Below, one piece after another: positions 12,932 to 63,318 of a DNA stretch of 64,000 nt. A program made the position numbers and the translations under genes. Position 1 is the first letter of the stretch; each line of letters begins with the position of its first letter. Source of the DNA: a virus; IMG/VR virus record IMGVR_UViG_3300045988_099717, positions 82,967 through 146,966 of that record. One strand, given 5' to 3'. The notes beneath the pieces were generated by a model, which had not been told where the DNA came from, searched no databases, and saw only the letters and a program-made list of their open reading frames with translations.

Positions 12932-13816
12932 ATGGATAAAGTTTCTGTTTTTGAAAGTTCGGATTTTGGAGAGCTTAGAATTATTGTAGATCCAAAAGGA
13001 GATGTTTGGTTTGTGGCGTCAGATGTGGCTAAATCTCTTGGATATATAAATGCTAAAGATGCGGTAAAAAGACATGTAGATGATGATGATTCTATGCTTT
13101 TGCAAGTATCTGATAATCAATGGGGCGTAAAACGATCTATATTGAAAACCAGATATATAGATAGTATAAGAATAATTAATGAATCTGGTTTATATTCTCT
13201 TATATTATCTTCAAAATTAGAGTCTGCTAAGAGATTTAAGAAATGGGTAACATCTGAGGTTCTTCCTTCTATTCGTAAAACAGGAGAATACAAAACAAGT
13301 TCAGGCGGCAAGGGAATTTTGGTTCCTGACTTTTCTAATCCAGCAGATGCGGCAAGGGCATGGGCTGATCAGTATGAAGCTGCTCAGAGAGCTATAGCTG
13401 AAAAGTCGCAGGCAGAGGCAGAGAAGCAACAAGCCTTGAAAACAATAGAAGAGCATAAACCTGATGTGGAATTTGCCGAGTCTTTTAGGAAAGTAGACCA
13501 TAATAATATGTGGTTGATTCGTGATATTGCTAAAAAGTTAGAACAGAATGGTGTTATTATCGCCGAAAAGAATCTTCGATCATTTCTTGAAGAAGCTAAG
13601 TTTATGTTTAGAAACGGTCTTGGAAAATGGGGACTATATAGCAATGTTGTAGCTAAAGGATATGGAGTATATAGGTCTTATTTTGTTGATAAATATTCTG
13701 GTGAAAGAGTTAATCAACAAACTATCTACATGACAGGATCTGGATACGAAGTGACCCTCAATGGCATAAAAGGAAAACTCAAAAATGTATTTTTAAAATA
13801 TGGTAAATTTGCTTGA
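12932..13816 (+). CDS. Bro-N domain antirepressor-like protein with a KilAC/ORF6C-like C-terminal domain
   Basis: The N-terminus FGELRIIVDPKGDVWFVASDVAKSLGYINAKDAVKRHVDDDD matches the Bro-N signature. The C-terminal half resembles phage antirepressor C-terminal domains. Confidence 0.75.
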   Translation: MDKVSVFESSDFGELRIIVDPKGDVWFVASDVAKSLGYINAKDAVKRHVDDDDSMLLQVSDNQWGVKRSILKTRYIDSIRIINESGLYSLILSSKLESAKRFKKWVTSEVLPSIRKTGEYKTSSGGKGILVPDFSNPADAARAWADQYEAAQRAIAEKSQAEAEKQQALKTIEEHKPDVEFAESFRKVDHNNMWLIRDIAKKLEQNGVIIAEKNLRSFLEEAKFMFRNGLGKWGLYSNVVAKGYGVYRSYFVDKYSGERVNQQTIYMTGSGYEVTLNGIKGKLKNVFLKYGKFA

Positions 13817-19799: not shown

Positions 19800-21125
19800 T
19801 GGGATTTATGATTATTTAACCAACAAAACCACCATACTTTAGTAGGTGGATGAATTGGTTTGATTAATTTTGAATCAAAATTACAGATAAAAAAATGATT
19901 TCATACAAATACAACATCTATCATTCGAAGAAAACGAAGTATCTTGACAAGATGCTTCGTGAATGTTGTTTTGTATGGAATCATGCGTTAGCTCTACAAC
20001 GTAGGTATCACAAACTGTTTGGGAAATATATATCAATTGGTAAAATGAAGAAACATTTTACCAAAAGAATTAAAAGAAATCTTCTTCATTCCCAAACAAC
20101 ACAAGAAATACTTGAACGTCTTGATGAATCTTATAATCGTTTCTTTAAGAAGTTAGCTAAACGACCTCCTAAGTTTAAATCACCGGAGAAATTCAATTCT
20201 TTTGTATTCAAACAAGGTGGTTTTACCCTGAATGGTAATTGTTTAACAATTAACAAAGGAAAGAAACGATTTAGATTCTCATACAGTAGAGTCTACGAAG
20301 GTAATGTTAAACAAATTAGAATAGTTAGAGAAACGTGTTCCCGTTTTAGTTTGATTATAGTTACAGACTATAATCCTATAAACTCCTATAGAAAGACACA
20401 TGATGGTGCATCTATAGGATTGGATTTTGGCCTGAAAACTTATCTAACTAAAAGCGATGGTAGCAAAATCGATTCTCCATTATTCTTAAAACAATATCAA
20501 AACAAGATTAGAAAACTAAACAAACGGCTTTCTAATGCAAAGAAAGGATCCAACAATAGAAGAAGGAGATTGTTTGAACTCCAACAAACGTATCGTAAAA
20601 TAAACGATCTTCGATCGGATTTTCAATGGGGATTAGCACACCAGTTATGCAAACAGTATGATTATATTTTTATTGAAGATCTAAACATTGAAGGAATGAA
20701 ACGTTTGTGGGGAAAGAAAGTTTCTGATCTCAGTCATTCTTCTTTTATTGATAAGCTAATGTATGTTTCTTCAAAGTATGGAGTAACGATACACAAGATT
20801 GACAAATGGTATCCTTCTTCCAAAACTTGTGAATGTGGCTGCATTAATAAAGGACTGTCGTTACGCGACCGCACGTGGGTGTGCCCAGCGTGCGGAGCGA
20901 TTAACGACCGTGATGTTCTTGCAGCTAAAAATATTCTTCGGAAGGGCATTTCCGAATTGGAGAGCAAGAGTAATTCCAGCGATAGTAATATCGGGGTTTC
21001 TTGCGTTTGTATCCAAGAATCCCATTCGCTTTAGCGATGGGAGTATGTCAAACTGGTAATTGCATAATTTAATTGAACGTAAATCCAAAGGACCCCAGTG
21101 AATCCTTTTTTGACGTATATGATAG
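19800..21125 (+). mobile_element. Candidate IS200/IS605-family element carrying only tnpB (IS1341-like); boundaries approximate
   Basis: An intact TnpB ORF. A hairpin ccacc-N11-ggtgg lies upstream at about 19834-19854. A hairpin aaagga-N10-tccttt followed by TTTT lies downstream at about 21093-21118. The 3' flank could encode a guide (omega) RNA. Confidence 0.5.
19895..21034 (+). CDS. tnpB: TnpB (IS200/IS605 OrfB-type RuvC-like nuclease, RNA-guided family)
   Basis: The N-terminus YKYNIYHSKKTKYLDKMLRECCFVWNHALA is typical of TnpB. A RuvC-I-like D is present (GLDFGLK), an E in FIEDLN, a zinc finger CECGC...CPACG, and a C-terminal DRDVLAAKNI (RuvC-III). Confidence 0.85.
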   Translation: MISYKYNIYHSKKTKYLDKMLRECCFVWNHALALQRRYHKLFGKYISIGKMKKHFTKRIKRNLLHSQTTQEILERLDESYNRFFKKLAKRPPKFKSPEKFNSFVFKQGGFTLNGNCLTINKGKKRFRFSYSRVYEGNVKQIRIVRETCSRFSLIIVTDYNPINSYRKTHDGASIGLDFGLKTYLTKSDGSKIDSPLFLKQYQNKIRKLNKRLSNAKKGSNNRRRRLFELQQTYRKINDLRSDFQWGLAHQLCKQYDYIFIEDLNIEGMKRLWGKKVSDLSHSSFIDKLMYVSSKYGVTIHKIDKWYPSSKTCECGCINKGLSLRDRTWVCPACGAINDRDVLAAKNILRKGISELESKSNSSDSNIGVSCVCIQESHSL

Positions 21126-22179: not shown

Positions 22180-25100
22180 ATGACATCAACGTGTATTATT
22201 AAAAGAGATAATAAAAAGAAAGTTGTTTCTGTCTCTACCAGATCAGGGGACAGGTCTATGTTGTTTGATAAAATAGCATCTGTTCCCCTTATGGAGAATA
22301 GGGAACGGGCTACTACTGTTTTTAAAACCGTATTTTCTAATAAGTTCTTAAAGGCTTTTGGCGACTGGAGAAAGAGAGTGCCTATCAACAAACAGGCTTA
22401 TAATAAGGTAAAATCCAACATCGATCTTATCCCAGAAGCCTATATAGAAAGGGTGCTGGATAAGGCTTCTAAGATGAGTAACCCTGTTCTTGTGTCAAAA
22501 TCAGATGCACCTTATGGGATTCAAGAATCGGGCTTTGGATTCTACAGCCAAGATCTGGGTGATAATATTATGTTGGTGGATGCTATGGTTCCGTCAAGTA
22601 TTTCCGTACCGGAAGGACCGGGAATAGACGCCGGGCAGTATCTACAAGATGCTATATCTTCGGACTTCACTCCCGTATCTATGGTACAGGATAAGGGTGT
22701 TAATTATATGGTTATAAAAGACGGTCTTAAGATATTTAGCCCAGAAGAGCTACCAGAAACAGATTCTAATCCTGTGGGTGTAACGTATCAGACCGGAGAG
22801 CCTCGTTTGTTTTTCATGAACGATCGTAGTCAATTATTTGAAGATTACGAAGAAGCTCTTCGCTCTGGCGGGAATGATATTAGAATAGGATTCTTATCCG
22901 GCACCGTTCAAGAATCTACCGTGGATGGCGTGGCAGACATTACTTACAAGGCTGGAAAGTATATTCTTAATAATCCCAAGTCTTTTATACCGGTCATGAC
23001 CGCTTCTGCTTCTACTTCTTTATCAACAAAAGGCGGGATAATTAACTACCTTATAAAGAAAGGTCTTTTGTCAGGATCTAAGATATTCGATTCGGAAACA
23101 AGAAGCTATTATCTTACAGGAGAAGGACATACAGGACAAATTAGACTTTTCAATTCAGCATTATCCTACACCGAGCTCCGTAATCATTTTGGTTCCGATG
23201 TTTCCATGAACGACCAAGGTATGATAACCATAAGCTCGTTGGATAATAGTAAGGTAACTATGAGGCTCGCTACCGGAGGAACGGAAAGGGTTAGCAAAGA
23301 GCAGATAAAGAACGATCTTAAGTCAGGAAGATACAATGAATTGGACGCCAAGTACGATCATTTTGATGCGCTTGTAGTTTCATTCATATTAGAAGACAAC
23401 GATCTTTATGCTGATACTAAAGCTAAGATCGTATCAGATTATAGCAGGCAGGAACGTGATCAACGAAATTCTATTGTCGAGATACTGAAAACTCTTGGCG
23501 TTAGTGTCATAGGTATGACCGACTATATAGAGAAGTACCAAACCAAATACGGGCATGAACCTTCTGCTAAGGCATTGGCGGATATTGCCAATAACGTAAT
23601 AGCAGTTGGTGAAGATGCTACTTTATCTGATTTAGTAGAAGAAACAGCCCACTTCCTTGTAGAGGCATACAGAGATCAGAATGCTGTTGAGGCTGTTCTG
23701 CAAGATGTAGAAGGTACGGAAGAGTGGAACCAGTATGCAGGTCAGTATTATAATACATACGGTAAGGTATATGAAGGAGCTGAGCTTGATAATGCTGTTA
23801 GGAGAGAAATTTTTGGAAAGATCCTCGCCAGGGAGATGCAGACCGGCACAGCACAGGCGCCGGTAGAGCCCACCTCCTTCCTGGGGCGCGTCCGGCAGCT
23901 TCTCTCTGGAATCGTAAGCTGGCTTAAATCAGCTTTATCAACCCAAAGACAAGATTTGAATAACGTTATTAAAAGCATTCGTGATCTTGCCATTACTGAC
24001 ATAGATAAAGGATTTGACACCTCTCTGTTAAAGGATAATGACTTTACATTATACTCCCTTTCTTCTATGAACAAGAACAAGTTTCTTGAGTCTAAGATCC
24101 GGGCATTGAGAAAAACCTTAAGAGACTTGCGTCAGATAAGCTCTGATAGGGCTGTAACTACGTCTATGACCCTTGCTCAGCTTAAGACTATAGAAGATAA
24201 GATAAATAAGGTAGAGACCGAAATAGACAAGAATGAGATGGCGGCTGCCATGAATAGCATGATCTCTACAGCCGAAGCTCAGGTCAGATACTTAAGCAAT
24301 GTGGTGAACACCATCCTTCATGGTGATACCAAAGATGGTAAGCTTCACTTCAATACCAATGATCGAAAGAACGTAGATATTATCAACAATCAGGTTCTTC
24401 CGATCATGAACGATCTTCGAGGATATATCCGTAACAGAAGTACCGAATTTGATGAACGTGAAAAGCAGGATTATACAAATAGGATTAATACCGTCATTGC
24501 CGACATTAATGGTATTCAGTCTGATATTAAATCAGTACAAGACCTTGATGAAAGCACGTTGCTTGATAAGTTAATGAACGAACTTCATGTGCCGGCAGAT
24601 AAGGTAAAGAGAGTAAAAGAATTTTTTGACAAAGTTCAACATGATGTCTCTTGGATAAGTAGGTGGTTCGGTATATTAGAGCATTCTTCCAGTCCGTTCA
24701 ATAACGCTCTTGGAGCTATGATTGCCAAAGACAATTACAATGCGATGGTGAATGCTCAGCCCGCCATATCCGACTTCCTGGCATATGCTAAAAAGCATGG
24801 TTTTAACAAATATGAATTTGAAAAACTGCTTCAGAAAGTAGATGGCAAAACTTCTAATTACCTTCGCAGTGCTCTTGATATGGCTAAATACGATCGTAAT
24901 AAGAAACTGGCACAGATGCGTGCGTTTGCGGCTGCCATGAACATAGAAATATCAGAAGAAGAAATCAATGATGTGGTTGACAATAATCGTAATTACGTAT
25001 TTAAAAGAGAAGTAGTTGACAAGGACGGAAATACGGTTACTGAAAACGCTAAATTTAAGCCCTCATCTGACAGGGTTAATACCGATATTTTTACCATCGA

Positions 25101-28100
25101 GCAGGAAAAGATCTATACGGAGCAGATGGAAAAGTGGGATGCTGAAAATTCAGAATTGGAATTTAGTGAAAGTTACGCCACAAGAATGGAATCCATATAC
25201 AAAAAGGCTGAAGAAGAATTAGGACATCCGGTTTCTCAAACAACCAAAGAATACCTTAATGCCTTATCCCGGCAAAAACGGATATTGAGGCAGCCTTTTA
25301 TTGATAGCGGTGGTAATTTTGATGAGGTTGCCTACTATAAGAGTAGTAACTACGAAGAAGAAGGACTGCTTCGTAAACAACGTAAGGAAGCAGCTTCGGA
25401 ATACATATATGTAGGGACCAGACGTGTTGAAAAAACCGGCGACCAACTTAAGATGGCCAAAGAAATACAAGCCATAAATGAAGTTTGGAGAAAAGAATCA
25501 AATAATGCCACTAATTCCGTATCAGAATCGTTTTTGCAAAAATTAAGAACGATTCAGAACGAGTCAGGAGGAGAAGCTGCGTTGAAGGCACTTATGTTGG
25601 GAGGTCACCTGTCATTTAATGATCGGTTTTGGAATGATGTAGAATCGGAACAGTCGGCACGTACCGAATCAAATAACAAGGCTTCGTATCTTAAAATGGC
25701 GCATGATATCATTAGTTCTACGACAAGTGATAGAGATGCGACTGACGTGGACTCGATTGTAAAAGATATAGAAAAAAATAAGGCCATTATCAAGGAAATA
25801 ATCGGAAACAATCGCGATGTGGCTGATATCGGAGAAATTAACGAAGCGACATTTACCTCATCTGAAAGAGATGCTTTTAGGGCCGCATCTGAAGCTATTG
25901 AAGCCGATTACGCTATCTTAATAGATTATGCTAAGATGGTGGGTCTTGAAGATATTGATAAGTACCTTACTAAAAGCAGTAAGGCTGAAAACGAAGTAAA
26001 TCAGTCTTATTTAAATGCTCTTGCTGACTCCAAGGAAGTGGAATGGAAGTTCGTACAACGTCATACTACGGCGAAGAAAGCAAAAAGGATTCAGGCTTTA
26101 AGGGATAAGCTGTTTAAGGCTGCTGATAACCGATATCTGTTTACCGTATCTGAAACCAACTACCTGTCAGAAAAGCTTGGTATAAGCAAAGAATTAGACG
26201 GTAGAGATTTCAGGAATGCTGTTAATGCTAAGATGGCCAGCTTATTTTTAAATAATACAAGAGAAGAGGGTATAGAAGAAGCTAATGCTATTGTTAATGA
26301 ATTTGCCAGGAGCCAGGTTTTTTCGTACTATAAACGCATGGCGCCTACCGGATATGCGGCCATGATCGACAAAATCGGTCGAGGTGAGATAGATGTGGCG
26401 CAGATGGTTAAGGACGTACAAAACGGTACATCCACCCAAGATTATGGCATGGACATATCGTACCTTTCTTTCGACCCTGCAAGGGCATGGGTGGCTGAAT
26501 CTGAAGCCGAAAATAGCGGCCGTAATCCTGATTATGTAAAAGATCATGGGTATGGTCATCGCATGCCTAAGAAAAGCCTGTATCGTGACGAATCGTATTT
26601 CAATGACTTTGGTATCAAGTATGATGCTGACGGTAATGAAGTTGCTACTAAAAACGTAGATCAGTGGAATATGATTCAAAAACTCAAGGAAATAAAAAGA
26701 CAATCACTTGATCTATACAAAGAGCAGAGCCCGAACCTGTATGCTATTCCACAGATATCAAAACAAGATATAGAACGTATAGAAGGATTGGGTATTAACT
26801 TCAAAAATACGGTTCGTAATTTTGTATCAGATCTGTGCCTGGACAGAGTAGACGATTCTTTATACGGTAAAACCAGACAAGGGGAAGTATATGATCCGGA
26901 AGACAGACTTAGGTCTATACCCAAATACTACATATATGAATTGGAGAACCAAGATGATGTATCTCACGATTTTGGCTACTCTTATTCTATGCTTATGATG
27001 CAGTCATCGTTATATAACGAAAAGCAGAAGTCTATAGAGCTTGCCCAAGGACTGGAGCAGATGTTACTGAATAAACAATTTGAAGGCGGTAAGAAGGCTG
27101 AAGCAACCCAAGCGTATCAGATGTTCAGGGACTTCTTCAACGATCATTATTATGGCATTAGGATGAACACCAAAAAACTTACGGTGAACATCGGAGGATA
27201 TACGGTAGACCTTACAAGAATTATGATGGCTGTTGAAAGATTTATGTCGGTCATGAACTTGGCACTGTCTCCGTTTGTGGCAGCTACCGGCGCCCTGACA
27301 GGTCATATCAACCTCATCATGGAATCTGCCGTAGGACAGTATATAAGCAAAGACTCCCTTAAATACGCATCGGCTGAATTTTCACGCCTTGCTCCATCTT
27401 GTATAGCAGAAACCGGAGACATAGATAGGAAAAGCAAATTATATGTCATAGGTGAGAGAATGGGGATATTCAATATCCGAAATCGTATGTATGGTGCCGG
27501 ATACAATAGAGTGGCCAGGACCTTAATGCGTTCACCTATGTATGCTTTTATGGAAATCCTGAACTACCCTCTTGATCCGCAGGTTATGATTGCTACTATG
27601 GACAATGTTCGTTATTACAAAGGCCGGTTCTACACGTTCCAAGATTTCAAGATGGAAAAAGAACGCAATAAAGAACAGAGTACCATAAAAAGAGAATGGA
27701 ATGCATTAAAAGATCGTACTTTATGGAGTATGGTAGATGTCGTGGATGGGAAGGTGGTTGTAAAGCCCGGATCAGGTGTTACTGTTGAGGAAGTTGAAAC
27801 CCAGATGGCTATAACCAGGAATCAAGTCCGTAGCTTGTCGCAGATATGTAACGGATCTTTGAATGAAGAAAATCGAACTGCCGCATCGCGCAACTGGATA
27901 GCCAGGTTCATGACCGCCCACCGAGGATGGTTGGTGCTGGCGGCTCAACGCCTGTGGAAAAGACGTGGCTTCAATTTCCAAACAATGCAAGAAGAGGAAG
28001 GGTTGTCAATTACGTTAAAGAATATGATAGCCAAAACATTTAGCTTAGCTTCCGAGTCTGGTATGAAAAACATCATAGATGCCTGGAACGAAAATAAAGA

Positions 28101-28602
28101 TAATATGAATGAGGTAGAGAAAACCAATATAAAACGCCTCAGTGTCTATGCCGGCACGTTCCTTATCATGCAAGCCGTATCCATGCTTCTTGCCGGATGG
28201 CGTGATGATGATGAAAACGAAGAAAGTTGGCTTACTCAATTTGGATCCTATGTCGGATTCAGAACCATAAACGAAATAGCTTCACAGATGCCGTTTATTA
28301 TGGAGCTTAACGTTGTAGATATCATTAACGACCCGTTTGTCATGGGGCGGAAGTTGAAGGATCTTACTGATCTTAGGAATTACTCACTTGATAAAGTAAC
28401 ATCCGGCACATACAAAGGAGAGTTTAAGTTATTTAGGCAACTCGCCAGACAGACGTTTATCAAACAATGGTATAACATCAAGACGCCGGAAGACATAGCG
28501 CGCGCCTATAATTGGTGGCAGCAGACAAACAACAAGTCAATGATGTTCTTCATCGGCGCCACTCCTGATTCGGAAGGAGACGATGATGTTAGTTACAAAT
28601 AG
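22180..28602 (+). CDS. Giant protein of 2140 aa, function unknown (virion or injected protein, or tape-measure-like candidate)
   Basis: Uninterrupted 6.4-kb ORF with long helical, coiled-coil-like stretches and hydrophobic segments near the C-terminus. No catalytic motif recognised. Confidence 0.75.
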   Translation: MTSTCIIKRDNKKKVVSVSTRSGDRSMLFDKIASVPLMENRERATTVFKTVFSNKFLKAFGDWRKRVPINKQAYNKVKSNIDLIPEAYIERVLDKASKMSNPVLVSKSDAPYGIQESGFGFYSQDLGDNIMLVDAMVPSSISVPEGPGIDAGQYLQDAISSDFTPVSMVQDKGVNYMVIKDGLKIFSPEELPETDSNPVGVTYQTGEPRLFFMNDRSQLFEDYEEALRSGGNDIRIGFLSGTVQESTVDGVADITYKAGKYILNNPKSFIPVMTASASTSLSTKGGIINYLIKKGLLSGSKIFDSETRSYYLTGEGHTGQIRLFNSALSYTELRNHFGSDVSMNDQGMITISSLDNSKVTMRLATGGTERVSKEQIKNDLKSGRYNELDAKYDHFDALVVSFILEDNDLYADTKAKIVSDYSRQERDQRNSIVEILKTLGVSVIGMTDYIEKYQTKYGHEPSAKALADIANNVIAVGEDATLSDLVEETAHFLVEAYRDQNAVEAVLQDVEGTEEWNQYAGQYYNTYGKVYEGAELDNAVRREIFGKILAREMQTGTAQAPVEPTSFLGRVRQLLSGIVSWLKSALSTQRQDLNNVIKSIRDLAITDIDKGFDTSLLKDNDFTLYSLSSMNKNKFLESKIRALRKTLRDLRQISSDRAVTTSMTLAQLKTIEDKINKVETEIDKNEMAAAMNSMISTAEAQVRYLSNVVNTILHGDTKDGKLHFNTNDRKNVDIINNQVLPIMNDLRGYIRNRSTEFDEREKQDYTNRINTVIADINGIQSDIKSVQDLDESTLLDKLMNELHVPADKVKRVKEFFDKVQHDVSWISRWFGILEHSSSPFNNALGAMIAKDNYNAMVNAQPAISDFLAYAKKHGFNKYEFEKLLQKVDGKTSNYLRSALDMAKYDRNKKLAQMRAFAAAMNIEISEEEINDVVDNNRNYVFKREVVDKDGNTVTENAKFKPSSDRVNTDIFTIEQEKIYTEQMEKWDAENSELEFSESYATRMESIYKKAEEELGHPVSQTTKEYLNALSRQKRILRQPFIDSGGNFDEVAYYKSSNYEEEGLLRKQRKEAASEYIYVGTRRVEKTGDQLKMAKEIQAINEVWRKESNNATNSVSESFLQKLRTIQNESGGEAALKALMLGGHLSFNDRFWNDVESEQSARTESNNKASYLKMAHDIISSTTSDRDATDVDSIVKDIEKNKAIIKEIIGNNRDVADIGEINEATFTSSERDAFRAASEAIEADYAILIDYAKMVGLEDIDKYLTKSSKAENEVNQSYLNALADSKEVEWKFVQRHTTAKKAKRIQALRDKLFKAADNRYLFTVSETNYLSEKLGISKELDGRDFRNAVNAKMASLFLNNTREEGIEEANAIVNEFARSQVFSYYKRMAPTGYAAMIDKIGRGEIDVAQMVKDVQNGTSTQDYGMDISYLSFDPARAWVAESEAENSGRNPDYVKDHGYGHRMPKKSLYRDESYFNDFGIKYDADGNEVATKNVDQWNMIQKLKEIKRQSLDLYKEQSPNLYAIPQISKQDIERIEGLGINFKNTVRNFVSDLCLDRVDDSLYGKTRQGEVYDPEDRLRSIPKYYIYELENQDDVSHDFGYSYSMLMMQSSLYNEKQKSIELAQGLEQMLLNKQFEGGKKAEATQAYQMFRDFFNDHYYGIRMNTKKLTVNIGGYTVDLTRIMMAVERFMSVMNLALSPFVAATGALTGHINLIMESAVGQYISKDSLKYASAEFSRLAPSCIAETGDIDRKSKLYVIGERMGIFNIRNRMYGAGYNRVARTLMRSPMYAFMEILNYPLDPQVMIATMDNVRYYKGRFYTFQDFKMEKERNKEQSTIKREWNALKDRTLWSMVDVVDGKVVVKPGSGVTVEEVETQMAITRNQVRSLSQICNGSLNEENRTAASRNWIARFMTAHRGWLVLAAQRLWKRRGFNFQTMQEEEGLSITLKNMIAKTFSLASESGMKNIIDAWNENKDNMNEVEKTNIKRLSVYAGTFLIMQAVSMLLAGWRDDDENEESWLTQFGSYVGFRTINEIASQMPFIMELNVVDIINDPFVMGRKLKDLTDLRNYSLDKVTSGTYKGEFKLFRQLARQTFIKQWYNIKTPEDIARAYNWWQQTNNKSMMFFIGATPDSEGDDDVSYK

Positions 28603-28815: not shown

Positions 28816-29433
28816 ATGAGACGAAGATTTCAAATAGGGATGGGGGTAAATCCCTCGCTTATAATCAATAAAGGCATATACATCCGACATGTAGATGGAG
28901 GATTATATACAAAAGAAAATTGGTCTAATAAAGGATATTCCAATGATCTATGCAATGGAATAGCTCTTGTAGATAAAGTGTGTTTTGTTATAGCCACTGA
29001 ATATATTGGCACATTTAGTTGGGGTAAGAATGGAAGAGTAGACAATGTATTTGCACAAAATAGTTCTTATATGGAGACCGTTAAAAAGGATTATTGGGGG
29101 CGTGAAAATCAGAATGCGTATCTTGAATATGATACCAGTAATGAAAATTACGCTTTTAATAAAGCTAATAGCTATTTATTTAAAAATGGTCAAAATGGAT
29201 ATGTAGGTGGCGCCGGAGAGTTTTTTTTGATATCATTGTATGCGAATGAAATAAACGAATGCCTTTTAATGGTAGGAGGTACGATAATGAGTAATAAAAT
29301 GTGGACATCCACTCAATCTACACAATTTACCTATTCGTGGTATTATGATATAAACATCCAAGGAGATCATTTGGATACAAGTACAAGGAGTAATCCACGT
29401 TATGTCCGCCCCTTTACCGAATTAATTTTATGA
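28816..29433 (+). CDS. DUF1566-like (Lcl C-terminal domain-like) protein starting MRRRF
   Basis: The internal ATG at 28816 gives MRRRFQIGM. The C-terminus ...MWTSTQ...W...RYVRPFTEL resembles the DUF1566 signature as I remember it. The track ORF begins at 28729. Confidence 0.45.
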   Translation: MRRRFQIGMGVNPSLIINKGIYIRHVDGGLYTKENWSNKGYSNDLCNGIALVDKVCFVIATEYIGTFSWGKNGRVDNVFAQNSSYMETVKKDYWGRENQNAYLEYDTSNENYAFNKANSYLFKNGQNGYVGGAGEFFLISLYANEINECLLMVGGTIMSNKMWTSTQSTQFTYSWYYDINIQGDHLDTSTRSNPRYVRPFTELIL

Positions 29434-29437
29434 AATT

Positions 29438-30175
29438 ATGAGAAGAAGATTTGAAAATAATGCTAAACTATATGAGTATAAGATAGTTAGCGATTGTATA
29501 GGGGGGGGGGTAATCGTAGAAGGAAAGAAAGTAGGCACCATTCCACAGGGCGGGCAATTTATCTTTCTGTCTAAAAAAGAACGGCTGGATTCCATAAGTG
29601 TCCAAGGCGGTGTTCCAATGGAAGATAGGCAAGAGATCGATAGTCAGGTTGATACGACAGAGGAATTGCTTGAACAGGATTCGGTGGTTCTTGCTATTGC
29701 TTTAACAACCTCTCCTTATTATGGATTTAGAGTAAGTGTGATAGCACCTGATGAGTTTACGCTAAGAACAACCAATAGGATTAATAGAACCTTTTTAATA
29801 ACAAGCTTTACTCCACCTGCTGCTATATACGGTGTAAACTTTGGTGATCCTATTGTCCTTAATTATGATAGTTACCAATATGAGATGCCAGATCTTGTAA
29901 TTGATGGACCTCATGATAGAATAGTTAGGGCAGATCCTAATCTTACTTGGGTTGTAAGATGTACAGACGCCGACTTTAAACCTTTGCCATATCCAGAATC
30001 ATGGTCTGGCCAAGGTTTAAATTCTATGTTCTTATCAGATATGAAACGTCTTGCTCCTGGTGATCATCATGTATCATATACAGCTTATATTAATTTGGAC
30101 TTGATAAATGATGGCGGAAGTAAAGTTCATACTGAATATCTGATATTAGAAAAAACACTTAATTTTACGATATGA
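29438..30175 (+). CDS. Hypothetical protein starting MRRRF and containing a G10 tract (tail fibre or receptor-binding candidate)
   Basis: 245-aa ORF with a G10 homopolymer at 29501-29510 inside the coding sequence. It is the last + strand gene before the strand switch. Confidence 0.55.
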   Translation: MRRRFENNAKLYEYKIVSDCIGGGVIVEGKKVGTIPQGGQFIFLSKKERLDSISVQGGVPMEDRQEIDSQVDTTEELLEQDSVVLAIALTTSPYYGFRVSVIAPDEFTLRTTNRINRTFLITSFTPPAAIYGVNFGDPIVLNYDSYQYEMPDLVIDGPHDRIVRADPNLTWVVRCTDADFKPLPYPESWSGQGLNSMFLSDMKRLAPGDHHVSYTAYINLDLINDGGSKVHTEYLILEKTLNFTI

Positions 30176-30220
30176 CAACAATCCCCAACCGTACGCCTAT
30201 TGTATGGTTGGGGATTGTTG
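30176..30220. terminator. Bidirectional terminator hairpin at the convergent strand switch
   Basis: Perfect 15-bp inverted repeat caacaatccccaacc/ggttggggattgttg with a 15-nt loop, lying between the + strand stop at 30175 and the - strand stop at 30265. Confidence 0.6.
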
Positions 30221-30264
30221 TAGTTACCATCTTTTCTTGTATAAGCAGAACATGAAATAAGTTT

Positions 30265-31940: not shown

Positions 31941-33138
31941 TCACAAAATATTTATTCTAACCGGATTAAACACAAATCCACTATCGATTATCTTTCCAAT
32001 GAAAGAATCACCGACTACTTTTCTTGCTATTCCTATAGCTCCATTAATATCAGCATTAATTAGCTTTCCAACGGAACTTTGGAATAATCCACGTTTCTTT
32101 CTTTTCCCTAAATAGGATTCTTGTTTCTTTAGAGGTTCAAAAGCAAGATGGTCAATCTTTGATGTGTAAGATTCCTCATGAGTAATTACCTCTATCCCTA
32201 AAAGATTTGCTTTGTAAACAATCTTATCAATCAATTTAGAATTTAGAATGAGGAATAGAAACAAAATGTTGGTTATTCCTTTTACCGATATTTATCTCGT
32301 TTTTCCATTCTTTGTTTAATCCAATGATGATTGTTCCTATATTGTTAGATTTACAAAAGTCTACAATGTATCTACTGATTTTATGCAATTTGTCTTCTAT
32401 CCAACAATTTCTAAACAAAGTAATTTTTCTTATTCTATTTGAAGTTCCCTTATTACCAACAAAAGACATCAACTTAGCTTTCTTCTTATTGTACCACTGA
32501 TTTACTGATTTCATAACCCGTCCGTTTATAATGAAAGAATTAGTTTCTACATTACTAATACATGAACATAAATTATTCAATCCTAAATCAATCGAAAGAA
32601 AATTGTCTTTGTTTAAACCAAGATCAGTTTCCTTTCTTTCATAAACTACCTCTACTACATAACATGTAGCTTGAGGGATTATTCTAACTTGTTTTAGTTC
32701 GTCTTTCTTTACATTTGTTTTGATAGGTTTGATTATATCTTTAACAAAATAAATACAATTATCACCCTTTACCCTACAATTGCAGTTGGTGAAAACAACC
32801 ATGTTTTGTTTCTTACCTTGTTTGTATGATGGAAGGTGAGGTCTATGATTTCCGTATTTAGAAGGATTCTTTTCAAAATCCTTCTTGAGTTTTATCCAGG
32901 ATTTTATGTTTTTAAATACCTGTTTAATCACCTGTTGGGATACATGATTAGGTAAATTCCTGAAATCGAATTGGTTTTCTTTGCAAAGTTTGTCTGATAA
33001 ATCAAATTCCTTTAAATAGTTACCTGAAAAGATTCCTTGACGAATGTTGTAAAGAACATAATTATATAACAAGCCGGATTTGAAGCAAATATCCTCAAAC
33101 CGGTTGTCTTTAACTATAGGCCTTTCAACTAATCTCAT
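31941..33138 (-). pseudogene. tnpB: Second TnpB-like gene, frameshifted (300-aa N-terminal ORF plus 107-aa C-terminal ORF in another frame), without a zinc finger
   Basis: The N-terminal ORF has a TnpB-like start and LSIDLGLNN (RuvC-I). The C-terminal ORF has HEESYTSKID (RuvC-II E) and NADINGAIGIARK (RuvC-III). The two frames overlap at 32236-32264. No CxxC pairs are present. Confidence 0.65.
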
Positions 33139-45362: not shown

Positions 45363-45929
45363 CTATTTCAATCTGCCGTAACTCATATCAGGATCACACC
45401 AGACATACCCGTCTTTCTCATCATGAAGATACTCAGGGCATCCTCTGCATGCGCTACTGCCTGACACTATTTGGTTGTTCTTATTAGGGCACTTATCTCC
45501 AGGCTTATGCCATTCTATTCTCGAACCTGATCGTTCTTTGTTTACATGACAGAACTGAAAGACTTTTCCCATCGTCTTCTCGCCGAACATACCTATATGT
45601 GTGTATTCTTCCGGTATAGATAGAAATTCGGATAAATCTTTATACATCCTTTCCCGTTCCTCCGGCGTAGACCATAGTCTATCAAGTTCGGCATGGACTC
45701 TTATCTTAAGAGACCTCAGTGATGGCCCCGCAAGCCGGCCTTTAGCTTTTCCCTTATTCGGCCCTGATTCATGAACACCGACATAAGCATTGCATGGTTT
45801 ACACATCATAACCATCCCTAAGCCTTTTCTGCTATATATTTTATCGGCATTGACCAACTCGGTTTCTCTTCCGCAATAAGGGCAAATTTCGCCTCTTAAA
45901 ATCCGTTGTTGCCGCACATTGAGTTCCAT
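45363..45929 (-). CDS. Cys-rich zinc-ribbon protein
   Basis: CPYCG...CKPCN at the N-terminus and CRGCPEY at the C-terminus. Confidence 0.5.
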   Translation of the reverse strand: MELNVRQQRILRGEICPYCGRETELVNADKIYSRKGLGMVMMCKPCNAYVGVHESGPNKGKAKGRLAGPSLRSLKIRVHAELDRLWSTPEERERMYKDLSEFLSIPEEYTHIGMFGEKTMGKVFQFCHVNKERSGSRIEWHKPGDKCPNKNNQIVSGSSACRGCPEYLHDEKDGYVWCDPDMSYGRLK

Positions 45930-46174: not shown

Positions 46175-46511
46175 TTACACACCCTGGATTATCTTCACAT
46201 GCCTCTTTGTATTCGATAAGAAACTTAAGAAATGAATCATAAGACCCCCATCCGTTTTCTGGTTCGTATCTCAAAAGACTCTTTCTCTTGGAGATCATAA
46301 TATATATACCTTTTGTGAGTATCTTCACCATCTCCTTAGTATCTATTTCCCTGCCCAATTCTTCCGGTCTCCAAACATAATCGTATAGTGTTTCTTTGTT
46401 TTCTGATACGAATATTTTTTGTGCCATCTTGTTCATGTTGTGGGTGATGTTTGCAACCCATTTACGATCCTCTTCTTTCTTCTTGCTCTTAATATAAACG
46501 TCCAGGCTCAT
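46158..46511 (-). CDS. Hypothetical protein
   Basis: 117-aa ORF. Confidence 0.45.
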   Translation of the reverse strand: MSLDVYIKSKKKEEDRKWVANITHNMNKMAQKIFVSENKETLYDYVWRPEELGREIDTKEMVKILTKGIYIMISKRKSLLRYEPENGWGSYDSFLKFLIEYKEACEDNPGCVIEASR

Positions 46512-47502
46512 AATATTTCTCTTTTACTTTGTTACTAATTATCAAATCTGCCACATCATCTCCATCTCCTACATTTTCAACATTTTGAAGATAGTCCGAT
46601 ACTTTTATCCTTGATCTCATCATCATCCCATCTATCTTTTTACTCCATGTCTCAAATGCTTGTCCTTTGTCCGGAAAAGCTACGGTCTTTCTATCTTTTA
46701 AAACATCTATCACTTCCGGCCTTAGATTCTGCAACCCACCGGTAGCTACAAATAACTCATCTGGTTTATTCACAGCGCATATAATAGCCGTCTTTTCTGA
46801 TTCCACCAAATTAACCACCTTATCCGGATACTGGCTTAGAAGATGTTCTCCGAACAGGCATTGTCTAAACAAGAAGTCTCTTGCATGCAACGAGTGATAA
46901 AACATGACATGAGGCCGCTCATTGTCACCGTCTTTTTCTTTCACTCTTTTTACATCAATCTCATTCCCCTGGCTGTCGGTCTTTATATAAAAGTCCATGA
47001 TCTTGCCGGTTCTACATACAAAATCTTTGTCTATCTGCCAGAATATACAACACCCTTTCCATCCCCATAAGTCCATTGTTCCGACATGATACCTCCTGAA
47101 TACATCAGATACCCTTTCTTTTCCCCATAGAGACGATAAAAATCTAAATACGGTGTTTCTGTCGTCTGGAACCACAGTCCTCTCAAACTCGCTAAAAGGT
47201 ATGTAATTTACAACGTCAGGATTTACAGGAGGACGATAAGCTCTTATACACTTGTTTCCCGAAATCCAAAGATCTTTGTCACCTACATCCTTACCAGTAG
47301 GTCGTTTATCATAACCGCAAGTCCGTTCATGATCGCATCTTCCAAACTCGTTTCCAACAACCTGACCTGTTGCCACATCAATATAAGGGGTGAGGCACCG
47401 GCTTTTCCCGCAAGCGGGGCAGGTTAGCTTCAGTCGGCTCCTGCCAGGTCTGCGGTCAAGTTGAAACCGGGGTACGTTTTCGTATCTTCTGAAATCAAGC
47501 AT
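46489..47502 (-). CDS. DNA primase (zinc finger plus Toprim)
   Basis: Zinc finger CPACGKSRC...CDHERTCG. Toprim motifs VNLVESEKTAIICA, VATGG, AFPDKGQ and GDGDDVADL. Confidence 0.7.
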   Translation of the reverse strand: MLDFRRYENVPRFQLDRRPGRSRLKLTCPACGKSRCLTPYIDVATGQVVGNEFGRCDHERTCGYDKRPTGKDVGDKDLWISGNKCIRAYRPPVNPDVVNYIPFSEFERTVVPDDRNTVFRFLSSLWGKERVSDVFRRYHVGTMDLWGWKGCCIFWQIDKDFVCRTGKIMDFYIKTDSQGNEIDVKRVKEKDGDNERPHVMFYHSLHARDFLFRQCLFGEHLLSQYPDKVVNLVESEKTAIICAVNKPDELFVATGGLQNLRPEVIDVLKDRKTVAFPDKGQAFETWSKKIDGMMMRSRIKVSDYLQNVENVGDGDDVADLIISNKVKEKYYEPGRLY

Positions 47503-47512
47503 TTTTAATTCC

Positions 47513-48841
47513 TCATATTATAAATCTTTTAGACATTTCCTCTGCAATATCATACACGACCGTATGATCCTCTTCATTGTACGGCTTATTGATATTCAGC
47601 ACTCCTTTTCTCACTTTGAACTTCTTATCTTTTCTAAGGTGATTCAACATACCTTGTTGGAACACGCAGTCCGCCTTTTCAAGTGCTATACTGTCTTCTG
47701 TCCATTCTTTCAACGTATATCCTTTGCTGCTCGTGCTTTTTGGAGAAAAGTTCATAATACGTGCATCAATCCCATACCATGCTTTAACCATTCTTCTTTC
47801 AGCTTCTAATTGAAATGCGTATGATTCCCATATTCCCCCTGATTTAAAGTCGAGAATAACCACTTCTTCCTTCTCCACGTCTCTTACCTCCTTCTTCGGA
47901 TCACCTTTTTTGAACTGTCCGGTAGCCCTTTGATATACGGCTCCAAAATAACCTTCTTCTTTGTATTTGAATGTCATTTTAACCATCGCATCAATAGGTG
48001 TTGCTACAAGGTAATCCTCTAAAGAAAGGATTCTTTCTATCATCATCGGTTTCACCTTGTAATCAGAACAGAATTTGGCAAACTTCATGACCCTGACAAT
48101 CATATCGTCAAGATCATCTATGCTATTAAAGAACCGATCAAGATTTTTCTTAGATATCTTCAGCTTGCCTTCTTGCACTGTCTTAACTACAAAGCTTCTA
48201 TTTAAGACCATATCTCTACCTGTTAGGTACAATCCGTATAAGTAGTGCATGATCGTTCCCTTATCGGCTTCATACTGCGCTACCTCTTCTGGATTGCGAC
48301 CAAGCATCTTCATCTCTTGCTTCCATTCCTGAAGTGCCGTCTTATCATCTACATACCCATCTTTGATTAAAGTTGTTACCGAAGCATATATCTTAGCCGT
48401 CCCATCATCCATCTTTCTTACATAAAAACGATTATCGTCTAATGTCAATCTTACGAATTTGGGTGTCTCAATCTTCTTCAACTCATCACAGATATAAAAC
48501 GGCTCTAACGTTTCCTGGTTTTCTGTAAACGGATTCGAGTCTTCTTCTCCAGGGTTAGGAGCGGCTTCCTCCGCCGGAGCTTCCGGTTCCTCCTTCTGGG
48601 CCTGCTCTGGCTCAGAAGCCGGCTCTTCAACTACTGGAACCTGTCCGCCTCTTTCTGCTATGTCTCTGTTCTTTATTAAAGACATAGCTTCCTTTTTTAA
48701 TTGCTCCGGTGTTTGATTAGGATCTGATACTGACATCACAACATCGTTCATTCTAAACAACGTATTTCCTTCTCCTTCCACCATAGGTACAAACCCTAAA
48801 TCTATTAATATTTTAATCTTTTCTTCTATCATATCTATCAA
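47513..48841 (-). CDS. Protein with an acidic disordered N-terminal linker and a C-terminal RecB/Cas4-like PD-(D/E)XK nuclease motif
   Basis: IDAMVKM is followed by VVILDFKSGG (a D-x-K core) and then Y..QLEAERRM. A P/E/A-rich linker lies near residues 60-110. Confidence 0.45.
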   Translation of the reverse strand: MIDMIEEKIKILIDLGFVPMVEGEGNTLFRMNDVVMSVSDPNQTPEQLKKEAMSLIKNRDIAERGGQVPVVEEPASEPEQAQKEEPEAPAEEAAPNPGEEDSNPFTENQETLEPFYICDELKKIETPKFVRLTLDDNRFYVRKMDDGTAKIYASVTTLIKDGYVDDKTALQEWKQEMKMLGRNPEEVAQYEADKGTIMHYLYGLYLTGRDMVLNRSFVVKTVQEGKLKISKKNLDRFFNSIDDLDDMIVRVMKFAKFCSDYKVKPMMIERILSLEDYLVATPIDAMVKMTFKYKEEGYFGAVYQRATGQFKKGDPKKEVRDVEKEEVVILDFKSGGIWESYAFQLEAERRMVKAWYGIDARIMNFSPKSTSSKGYTLKEWTEDSIALEKADCVFQQGMLNHLRKDKKFKVRKGVLNINKPYNEEDHTVVYDIAEEMSKRFII

Positions 48842-60994: not shown

Positions 60995-61669
60995 TCAATT
61001 AATTATTTTATCTATCATATCGTTAGCAAGGCGTATACGCCTCTCCATCTCCGCGAATATTTTTTCATCCGGCAGGATACGGACGATGTGTATCGGATCG
61101 GATTGATATGGATTATAGGCAATGAAATATACCTCTTTCGCCCCTGTACACATCATGTGTGCCATGCACTGGTAGAAGTATTCATATTTTACGCTTAATA
61201 GGGATGCGTTGTCATAAATCTCGTTCTTGTAGCGCATGAATGTTGCCTGGTTGGGACATTTTATTTCCAGACAGGACTTTATGCCGGTGTTCTCGTCGTA
61301 GTAAAAACCGTCTGGACTGCTGGCAAAATGTGGAATGGTAGGATGTTTGCACGAACCGACCTCCACAATATGCAGACCGGATATTTCGGCATACAGGTTG
61401 CGAGCATCCGCCTCTTGTTCGTTGCCCCATCGTATCGCCTTGCTGGTCACTTCCGTTTGCTTGAGATATTCGGCAAACTGGCTATCGTCATTAACGATAG
61501 CCGGATTCATTGCCCTTTCTGATGCTATTTGATATATGTAGCTTTTCCCTGTTTCAGAAAAGATGTCCGTGCGCCCGCTTTTCATTAGTAAGCCGACATT
61601 GCTGCCTGTGATATTCCCATGACGGGCGCGGAACCAAGCTATCGTATGCTGTGCTGCATTATCAATCAT
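60995..61669 (-). CDS. YqaJ-like viral recombinase-associated exonuclease (lambda-Exo family)
   Basis: The N-terminus AWFRARHGNITGSNVGLLM matches the YqaJ signature W..R.G.ITAS. It is adjacent to RecT. Confidence 0.6.
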   Translation of the reverse strand: MIDNAAQHTIAWFRARHGNITGSNVGLLMKSGRTDIFSETGKSYIYQIASERAMNPAIVNDDSQFAEYLKQTEVTSKAIRWGNEQEADARNLYAEISGLHIVEVGSCKHPTIPHFASSPDGFYYDENTGIKSCLEIKCPNQATFMRYKNEIYDNASLLSVKYEYFYQCMAHMMCTGAKEVYFIAYNPYQSDPIHIVRILPDEKIFAEMERRIRLANDMIDKIIN

Positions 61670-62538
61670 AACAGGGTTTTTTGTGAGGGTTGTTTACTAT
61701 CCGTCTCTGCTTTTTCAACCGGGTATGGTTGCTGTTCTTCCATTTTTTTTTGGACGGCTGCTTTGCTTGCCAGATCGGCCAGCTTGTTTTTTGGCTTGAT
61801 TTCTTCATATTCGACATCCTGTATGTCGTCAGCTTCTTCTTTAGTCAAGAATCCCATGCTGATTTCAGGACAGTACATACGTTGCCAGAATGCAGCAGCA
61901 CGATAAGTAAGCATAAGGCTTGGCATTGTAACCCACTTGCTACCGGTTTTTGTATACCATCCTTCCTTAATTGCCGTTTCAATCGTTATAGGATCGGATT
62001 CAAGTGTCTCCCCTGTAGAAAGTTCAGTTGCGTAGGCAATACATTCAATGTTGTCAACATCTGTACCGTCAAACTCTTTTACCACTATGGTATTACGCTT
62101 AGCAACATTATCCCAAACCGTTTCGTTATATTTGATCTTTCCGACCTTACCGAGACTTCGTTTTCGGTATCGTAGGGATGAATATTTACCACTCATGTTG
62201 ATGGTAGCAATAAGGAATTTGCTCGACCATGAGGGGTTGCCCTTGACAATGTAAAGGTTTTGCATGACCATCAGCGAATTCACGCCCATACGTGTTGCCA
62301 TATCAATCGCAATCACACAGTTGCCAACATTGCCTTTATAGGCTTCTGGTACGATTGTGCTTTCCGTGTACATCTTTGCCATGCGTTGCATGACCTCGAA
62401 CTGTTTCACCATCTGTCCGACCGGAGTAAGTGCAAATTCGGCAGCTTGTTTTGCCTGGGTAATCTGCAGTTCTGTTGTTTGAATCTGTTGTTCCATTATT
62501 ATACTGTTTTTAATGTTGTTCGTTTTTGTAAGCCTCAT
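61666..62538 (-). CDS. recT: RecT-family single-strand annealing protein
   Basis: A RecT-like core (...TESTIVPEAYKGNVGNCVIAIDMATRMGVNSLMVMQNLYIVKGNPSWS...) translationally coupled to the YqaJ exonuclease gene. Confidence 0.6.
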   Translation of the reverse strand: MRLTKTNNIKNSIIMEQQIQTTELQITQAKQAAEFALTPVGQMVKQFEVMQRMAKMYTESTIVPEAYKGNVGNCVIAIDMATRMGVNSLMVMQNLYIVKGNPSWSSKFLIATINMSGKYSSLRYRKRSLGKVGKIKYNETVWDNVAKRNTIVVKEFDGTDVDNIECIAYATELSTGETLESDPITIETAIKEGWYTKTGSKWVTMPSLMLTYRAAAFWQRMYCPEISMGFLTKEEADDIQDVEYEEIKPKNKLADLASKAAVQKKMEEQQPYPVEKAETDSKQPSQKTLL

Positions 62539-63031: not shown

Positions 63032-63318
63032 CGATATTACTACTTATTCTAAACCAATAAAAAATAACTGAGGCCAATCGCGGACTCGATCCGCGTGTAA
63101 ACCCAGGTGAGCTTTTTAGGCGAGACACGTTGATATAATTAAAATTTTCACCTTGTTTATTTGGCCGCCCAACCATCTCTAAGGCGGAATAAATATTTCT
63201 TTCATATCAATGTTTGTTATGTGGCAATACGGTCTTCTTAACCAACCACCGCAAGGATACCCGGATAGGGATTGCCACGAGTTATATAGTATGGAAATAA
63301 AAAGAGTCAAAAAAGAAA

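Follow-up and report, generated by a model that had tools for sequence, protein, structure and literature searches.

Results

A poly-G tract sets the reading frame of a late phage gene

The DNA analyzed here, a stretch of 64,000 nucleotides (nt) from the virus record IMGVR_UViG_3300045988_099717 (positions 82,967 to 146,966; hereafter the window), is part of a ~150-kb crAss-like phage of the human gut. GenBank holds a single phage with near-identical DNA, csAssE-Sib (OR575929; human gut, 151 kb), which is also the nearest complete genome and whose annotation carries crAss001 vocabulary, e.g., muzzle and ring proteins. Within a + strand open reading frame (ORF) of 245 amino acids (aa), which we refer to as gene B (29438-30175), the window contains ten consecutive G residues at positions 29501-29510, near the 5' end of the ORF as the original prediction for this DNA had placed them. 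No other G or C run in the 64 kb exceeds six, the runner-up runs being one G6 and several C5, in agreement with the earlier remark that this genome otherwise avoids G/C runs. By chance, the window would contain 0.003 G runs of ten or more if bases were independent, and 0.010 under a first-order Markov chain. The ten residues constitute codons 22-24 and the first base of codon 25 (TGT ATA GGG GGG GGG GTA ATC, i.e., C20 I21 G22 G23 G24 V25; gene B reads MRRRFENNAKLYEYKIVSDC-I-G-G-G-V...), so that the frame in which the remaining 221 codons are read depends on the tract length. The features of the gene that enter this arrangement are as follows:

29438..30175, + strand: gene B, encoding a 245-aa orphan all-beta late protein (ORF, homologues and AlphaFold2 [AF2] model)
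29501..29510, + strand: poly-G tract G10, the hypermutable element, in the in-frame (ON) length for the window allele
29511..29513, + strand: TAA, which becomes an in-frame stop at G9 or G12 (in silico; main-clade G9 loci)
29494..29496, + strand: TTG, in frame with the gene B body at G9 or G12; the start picked by gene callers, with products of 226/227 aa (MYRGG...)

The product length for each tract length was computed in silico from the window sequence:

G7: 244 aa, in frame
G8: 44 aa, out of frame
G9: 24 aa, out of frame, with the TAA directly after the run
G10: 245 aa, in frame
G11: 45 aa, out of frame
G12: 25 aa, out of frame
G13: 246 aa, in frame

Tracts of G7, G10 and G13 would accordingly be read through to the full-length protein (245 aa at G10), G9 and G12 would stop at the TAA directly behind the run, and G8 and G11 would stop about 20 codons further on. 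The original prediction, that a one-nucleotide change truncates the protein after about 25 codons, is roughly right, the G9 product having 24 aa and the G11 product 45 aa.

Tract length differs among near-identical genomes

In IMG/VR, our scan identified 78 loci with gene B, the matches being 731-737 nt long rather than always 735. The tract was read at locus position 4064 between the same flanks (TGTATA-Gn-TAATCGTAG); in a second clade the run is followed by TGTTATGTA, and there G9 is the in-frame length. At this one site the 78 relatives carry G8, G9, G10 or G11. With the window included (79 copies, to which the ON/OFF totals refer), the two clades contain:

Main clade, G10: 22 loci (window included), ON
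Main clade, G9: 23 loci, OFF
Main clade, G8: 8 loci, OFF
Second clade, G9: 3 loci, ON
Second clade, G8: 4 loci, OFF

In total, gene B is ON in 33 copies and OFF in 46. In 41 of these 46 the tract is the sole cause of the OFF state, and 44 retain an uninterrupted body frame as far as the normal stop. All 23 G9 loci of the main clade terminate at MRRRFENNAKLYEYKIVS[DN]CIGGG*. Some tracts are interrupted by other bases: those of 10 nt, e.g., GGGGGAGGGG and GGGGGTGGGG, are in frame in five of five cases, which fits a 'locked ON' state, and the G8AGG and G8AAG tracts at four loci are out of frame.

Further assemblies (Logan, ENA, JGI) extend the range to G11, G12, G13 (in frame) and G17. Stubs of 45 aa corresponding to G11 (...CIGGGGNRRRKESRHHSTGRAIYLSV) are encoded on 50, 62, 11 and 10 contigs (JGI, Logan, ENA); database stubs of 44 aa correspond to G8 and a 47-aa stub to G17, and the G13 in-frame allele is present as well. 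In the eight G11 loci that were fetched, the body is intact, with 4-10 mismatches to the window over 665 positions. Runs that yielded ON contigs include SRR27027770, ERR414471 and ERR13909119, and OFF contigs with G11 came from, e.g., SRR5056756, SRR26367470 and ERR13301963. The comparison of related genomes that the original prediction had called for finds lengths of G8-G13 and G17 at one site in ORFs that are otherwise intact. Taken together, the repeat is far longer than the background runs of the genome, its length is polymorphic between conserved flanks and the downstream ORF of OFF alleles is intact, as in contingency loci: a conserved ORF, intact in other respects, is read in a frame that a hypervariable intragenic poly-G tract determines.

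The variation has left its mark on the databases. Public records of the family are often N-terminally truncated (221-227 aa) or stubs of 24-47 aa (A0A8S5MGK9, P0070, P0076, P0107), and the 226-227-aa database proteins that start with MYRGG(G)V are G9/G12 alleles called from the TTG at 29494-29496. Such truncated and stub gene calls are annotation artefacts of the switch, arising because the tract lengths are out of frame; more than half of public contigs hold gene B out of frame. The only UniProt/BFVD representative found, A0A8S5MGK9 (a BFVD match), is itself N-terminally truncated. As a separate observation, an A6 run in gene B (29573-29578, KK codons) is constant in the IMG/VR set and is a frameshift site in a few database proteins (P0209, P0212: ...SSKKKVGYCVYSRR), i.e., a minor second hot spot.

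Turnover of the ON/OFF state and retention of the tract

Among locus pairs with at most two differences in the 645-nt body, the ON/OFF state differs in 44 of 81. On a neighbor-joining tree of 72 genomes, built from 4.5 kb of flanking sequence, Fitch parsimony requires at least 23 ON/OFF changes, compared with 23.7 after shuffling of the tips, and no phylogenetic clustering of the state was found on this tree beyond identical genomes. Since the parsimony count equals the shuffled value, the state is saturated relative to substitutions. Even a single group with 0.1-0.25% flank divergence holds G10, G9 and the interrupted GGGGGGAGGG.

The tract itself is retained over much larger distances. An intact G10 is present in an allele of only 40% protein identity (P0123, locus L080) and also together with an unrelated C-terminal two-thirds of the protein (P0129, P0196; loci L081-L085); about ten substitutions lie in the 60 nt upstream of the tract in divergent alleles, the G10 itself being intact. 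GGG is the rarest Gly codon in the window genes (12%), three in a row have a chance of 0.0018, and the codon is absent from the other three Gly-Gly-Gly sites of the window. In the protein, only G22 and G23 are invariant, while the third Gly is replaceable by E, R, D, T or S, so that neither the third GGG nor the following G is required by the protein. Retained in divergent alleles and against codon bias, the tract is probably maintained by selection. It is interrupted in about 9 of the 79 copies and absent from csAssE-Sib. For the distant homologues P0138 and P0121, whose C-x-G-G-G motif might be encoded as a G tract, no loci were found in the viral collection.

Gene B encodes an all-beta protein with a constrained N-terminal module

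The gene B protein combines a conserved N-terminal module (MRRRF..Y.Y.I.SNC.GG.V.V....G..P..G.F.F...GGVP) with a fast-evolving C-terminal part, and the tract falls on the conserved C-x-G-G motif of this N-terminal beta module. A HMMER scan of 1.8 billion representatives yielded 39 relatives, several of which share only the N-terminal ~65-aa module (MRRR..Y.Y.I.SNC.GG.V.VD...G..P..G.F.F...GGVP), joined to different C-terminal bodies. Residues 183-230 match repeats of large surface proteins of the type IX secretion system (T9SS) type, rich in CarboxypepD_reg, immunoglobulin (Ig)-like and SprB domains. The AF2 model is all-beta with a mean predicted local distance difference test (pLDDT) score of 88.5, and its structure matches are generic sandwiches of the Ig/fibronectin type III (Fn3) kind only. 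Searches of genes A (the ORF directly upstream, described below) and B against Pfam, PHROGs and NCBIfam, a Pfam search with all 43 aligned homologues, and a profile search against PDB sequences, gave nothing usable; none of the 43 family members matches the PEGA or CarboxypepD_reg Pfam models at E ≤1. The large proteins matched by the N-terminal module carry sub-threshold PEGA matches (E 8e-4 to 1e-3), and we treat the PEGA resemblance of this module as a lead only. A lipoprotein or signal peptide reading of MRRRF...C20 was rejected on sequence inspection, there being no hydrophobic h-region.

Selection was assessed from the ratio of nonsynonymous to synonymous polymorphism (pN/pS, with confidence interval [CI]) and divergence (dN/dS), with the neighboring giant ORF as the constrained-gene control:

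Gene B, residues 31-72: pN/pS 0.39 (CI 0.25-0.57)
Gene B, residues 73-245: pN/pS 1.41 (CI 0.85-2.64); some patches exceed 3
Gene B, whole body: dN/dS 0.58-0.79
Giant ORF (22180..28602, + strand, 2140 aa, virion structural protein; phrog_37651, E 2e-77): dN/dS 0.025

These polymorphism data indicate purifying selection on the N-terminal module and, together with the confident AF2 model, make the gene B product look functional. C-terminal patches that are candidates for positive selection span residues 83-97, 128-147, 158-172 and 188-231. The picture is of a functional, fast-evolving, adhesin-like late accessory protein whose alleles are exchanged at the locus. An adhesin-like or host-interaction role is plausible, and the protein may be virion-associated or host-interacting. 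The more specific label of receptor-binding protein, which had been given on account of a position typical of tail fibers, is not supported. Neither block location nor domain homology places gene B in a tail-fiber or host-range module; the gene follows the giant virion structural ORF, no relative of it turned up in Pfam, PHROGs, NCBIfam or PDB and, in csAssE-Sib, a tail fiber is annotated at 43.8-45.9 kb, with the gene B locus at 110.3 kb, i.e., ~60 kb downstream. That tail fiber has a diversity-generating retroelement (DGR) of its own (variable repeat 45751-45846, template repeat 46215-46310, reverse transcriptase 46419-47816). A DGR target inside the window was considered; the relative's DGR falls outside the window.

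Neighboring genes and further variable tracts

Gene B is the last + strand ORF ahead of a strand and GC-skew switch at ~30.2 kb, and its description as the final late gene was correct. Its immediate surroundings comprise, in addition to the giant ORF:

28816..29433, + strand: gene A, an ORF of 205 aa that starts MRRRFQIGMG, ends 4 nt before gene B and is frameshift-polymorphic in relatives
28842..28846, + strand: G5 run in gene A codons 9-11; relatives have G4, G5, G6, G8, G9 or a 10-nt all-G run
29221..29228, + strand: T8 run in gene A, the second frameshift hot spot there (T7 n=9, T8 n=54, T9 n=8)
30176..30222, no strand assigned: perfect 21-bp hairpin where the late (+) and early (-) blocks converge (folding free energy, dG, -35.1 kcal/mol, z = -7.7)

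The hairpin is kept in csAssE-Sib and, by folding, consists of a stem without a T tail; it is likely a bidirectional terminator. No terminator was called by a simple promoter/terminator scan. Similarity to csAssE-Sib, at 96%, ends ~20 nt into gene B and returns at the hairpin. In between, csAssE-Sib has a different 149-aa body after the common MRRRFEN start, with no G tract.

Gene A is intact in only ~41 of 75 relatives, and its state is neither coupled to that of gene B nor mutually exclusive with it (Fisher p = 0.10). At two loci (L037, 4001-4696; L047, 3973-4672), ~685 bp between the G tracts of the two genes are deleted, with the joint at the G runs (plus TAA), leaving a gene A start joined to the gene B body. 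The L037 fusion has G5 and is in frame (231 aa); that of L047 has G9 and is out of frame. A third gene of the MRRRF type is preceded by such a tract. Across the 150 kb of csAssE-Sib, the sole G or C run longer than six is a G11 at 63256-63266 (L087:13256-13266), located 18 nt upstream of the ATG of an MRRRF gene for a Gly-rich 240-aa protein. In 26 IMG/VR relatives (L089-L165) this intergenic run is G7 (n=2), G8 (n=3), G9 (n=11) or G10 (n=10), and it may tune the promoter or 5' untranslated region (5'-UTR) of the Gly-rich gene.

Elsewhere in the window, a TnpB/IS605 OrfB-like gene (31941-33138, - strand) is split into ORFs of 300 and 107 aa by a 7-nt tandem duplication (TTCTAAA TTCTAAA); the L081 copy is intact (404 aa) and otherwise 99.4% identical. 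A second TnpB-like ORF, intact, lies within the late operon (19895-21034, + strand). The protein sequence of the thymidylate synthase encoded at 61666-62538 (- strand) is shared at 99-100% identity with many viral contigs of 20-70 kb outside the 150-kb phage type, which suggests that this gene was recently exchanged horizontally among gut phages. A homologue of Ant-type anti-repressors (12932-13816, + strand; phrog_130, E 1.5e-55) occupies a central position in the late structural gene block of what seems to be a lytic crAss-like phage.

Discussion

We propose that the G10 tract is a hypermutable, contingency-type locus and that phage populations hold reversible ON and OFF variants of a late, all-beta, adhesin-like protein, a reading to which we assign a probability of roughly 0.7. 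Strand slippage during phage DNA replication would add or remove G residues, and such slipped-strand mispairing would give rise to ON and OFF progeny at high, reversible rates. The resulting mixture would serve as bet-hedging for a host-interaction function, e.g., against hosts with phase-variable surfaces. Fast, reversible switching within a population and its adaptive value as bet-hedging are inferred. Of the slipped-strand on/off switch in a receptor-binding protein that had been put forward originally, the switch is well supported by the lengths G8-G13 and G17 among near-identical genomes and by the tract being kept in divergent alleles, and the receptor-binding label is not.

Long G runs are prone to error, and an assembly artefact had been a worry from the outset: there might be one true length everywhere, with G8-G13 arising as poly-G errors of short-read assemblies. 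The contig that terminates exactly within the tract (L044) and the unlike frequencies of G11 in IMG/VR and in Logan/ENA would be in keeping with such errors. A/T homopolymers of 7-9 nt in constrained genes are stable, though: the A7 in the giant ORF (25772-25778) is constant in 75 of 75 loci, as are three A6 runs, and the A9 in the thymidylate synthase gene (61743-61751) in 31 of 32 IMG/VR relatives. Tract length also agrees among genomes with identical flanks. The pairs L004/L035 and L024/L025 have identical uninterrupted tracts in each pair, L022/L023 differ by a T-to-G substitution (G10 then T vs G11) at equal total length, and L055/L056, with 0.04% flank divergence, share the interrupted tract G8AGG. 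Length shifts occur even in interrupted tracts, down to G7AGG vs G8AGG, and consensus lengths up to 2-3 nt apart are repeated across many independent samples and pipelines, the exact ON protein of the window being present in 139 index blocks of the assembly collection and one exact G11 (OFF) stub in 98. Because the homopolymer controls are stable and the replicate genomes concordant, we regard most of the tract variation as biological and an artefact as very improbable. The lack of phylogenetic clustering cannot alone separate hypermutation from error, hence the reliance on controls and concordance. If the lengths are real, the run might still be a slippery site at which the ribosome or RNA polymerase slips, so that OFF lengths also give full-length protein. 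Stop-adjacent homopolymers are shifty, and in the G9 form a -1 shift would re-pair the P-site Gly-tRNA with GGG and bring GTA (Val25), in the body frame, into the A site; by such a ribosomal slip into GTA ATC... OFF forms might leak. Recoding leaves G8 and G11 unexplained, as these would need +1 or -2, and it would supplement a DNA-level switch rather than replace it; we give it very little credence as the explanation of the tract.

The main rival to a contingency locus is that a hypermutable tract lies in an accessory gene which the phage can do without, with the ON and OFF states drifting neutrally and the gene en route to loss or replacement. This accounts for an ON count (33 of 79) near the one-third expected of frame-blind lengths and for a length spectrum that resembles that of the intergenic poly-G. 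It is also consistent with the state of the locus at large, where about half of the genomes have a gene A disrupted by a variety of lesions, the gene B body is replaced in csAssE-Sib, gene A and the gene B start are deleted outright at two loci, and the C-terminal pN/pS of ~1.4 has a CI that includes 1. A gene drifting in this way is expected to collect other lesions as well, yet lesions outside the tract are present in just 3 of the 79 copies, and the N-terminal module, with its pN/pS of 0.39, is under purifying selection. Furthermore, the uninterrupted tract persists at 40% protein identity and across C-terminal bodies, with the rarest Gly codon used three times. If the gene mattered and switching were harmful, a synonymous GGA or GGT break would be easy, yet breaks are rare (~9 of 79). 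Neutral drift therefore seems unlikely to us, but it deserves to be taken seriously. Several points weigh against a selected population-level switch. The evidence consists of consensus contigs, one consensus per sample, and so bears on within-population heterogeneity, rate and reversibility at one remove; the homopolymer controls are A/T runs only, which leaves some room for a poly-G-specific sequencing bias. G8 is common and G11 almost never seen in IMG/VR, whereas G11 is common in Logan/ENA, a contrast that hints at some pipeline dependence. The C-terminal pN/pS is compatible with neutrality and the dN/dS of the body is far above that of the giant ORF. With ON at only 42% and an intergenic-like length spectrum, nothing points to selection for the ON frame, and the replaced, tract-free body of csAssE-Sib implies that gene B is dispensable in at least one lineage.

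The switch at gene B could be one of several. In this wider scheme, which we put forward tentatively and consider doubtful as a whole, the lineage would possess a small 'phasome' of MRRRF genes, namely gene B (intragenic G8-G17), gene A (G4-G9 and T7-T9) and the Gly-rich gene ~45 kb upstream (5'-UTR/promoter G7-G11), which would switch independently. Late-protein sets and virions would thereby become combinatorially heterogeneous and might track the phase-variable surfaces of Bacteroidales, and the G tracts would also act as recombination joints for fusions of genes A and B.

The closest precedent for the proposed switch is found in Campylobacter phages of the genus Fletchervirus, for which phase variation through poly-G tracts in receptor-binding-protein genes is reportedly established (Sorensen et al. 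2021, Cell Rep 35:109214, cited in PMC10877375; summarized in 10.1101/2025.10.21.683753). The two systems share an intragenic poly-G of the G7-G11 type in a late gene of a lytic phage, ON/OFF sub-populations produced by length variation, and an AT-rich genome otherwise poor in G runs. In contrast to the Fletchervirus genes, gene B encodes an unrelated orphan protein, belongs to a crAss-like human-gut phage and is known here from consensus sequences. Among cultured phages, T2, T4 and others have also been described to carry homopolymer contingency loci (Gomez, Barrick and Waters, 2025 preprint, 10.1101/2025.10.21.683753), and poly-G tracts in BPP-1 and PB1-like phages are listed in the same work. 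Homopolymer slippage, reversible frameshifts, heterogeneous populations and a bet-hedging reading are common to the T2/T4 loci and the one proposed here; those are mostly short A/T-type runs of at least six in deep-sequenced lab phages (10.1101/2025.10.21.683753), whereas gene B carries a single exceptionally long G run and its evidence comes from natural metagenomic diversity. The bacterial contingency loci of the Moxon type (Campylobacter, Neisseria, Haemophilus) likewise have a 5'-end homopolymer in the ORF of a surface or interaction protein, frameshift ON/OFF switching and an intact ORF in OFF alleles (PMC8355987, PMC5084427). Gene B differs from them in that the replicon is viral, the switching unit is a burst or lineage rather than a cell, and the mismatch-repair context and polymerase are different. 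Within the same phage lineage, the DGR of csAssE-Sib (OR575929) also diversifies a late, probably host-interacting protein by a distinct mechanism; it rewrites C-terminal codons of the tail fiber by reverse transcription, with no ON/OFF states and no need of a homopolymer. In the literature searched, we found no report of a poly-G switch for crAss-like phages. Poly-G phase variation is already known in a few other phages, and the crAss-like case would add to them.

Few viruses of the human gut are more abundant than the crAss-like phages. What sets the present case apart is the prevalence of the phage, the strong signal in natural populations and a possible multi-locus MRRRF set, and the switch hypothesis is directly testable on existing metagenomic reads. 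The long-term coexistence of crAss-like phages with their hosts is reportedly put down, as a rule, to phase variation on the host side. If our reading is true, a widespread phage lineage would mirror host phase variation with a slippage switch on its own side.

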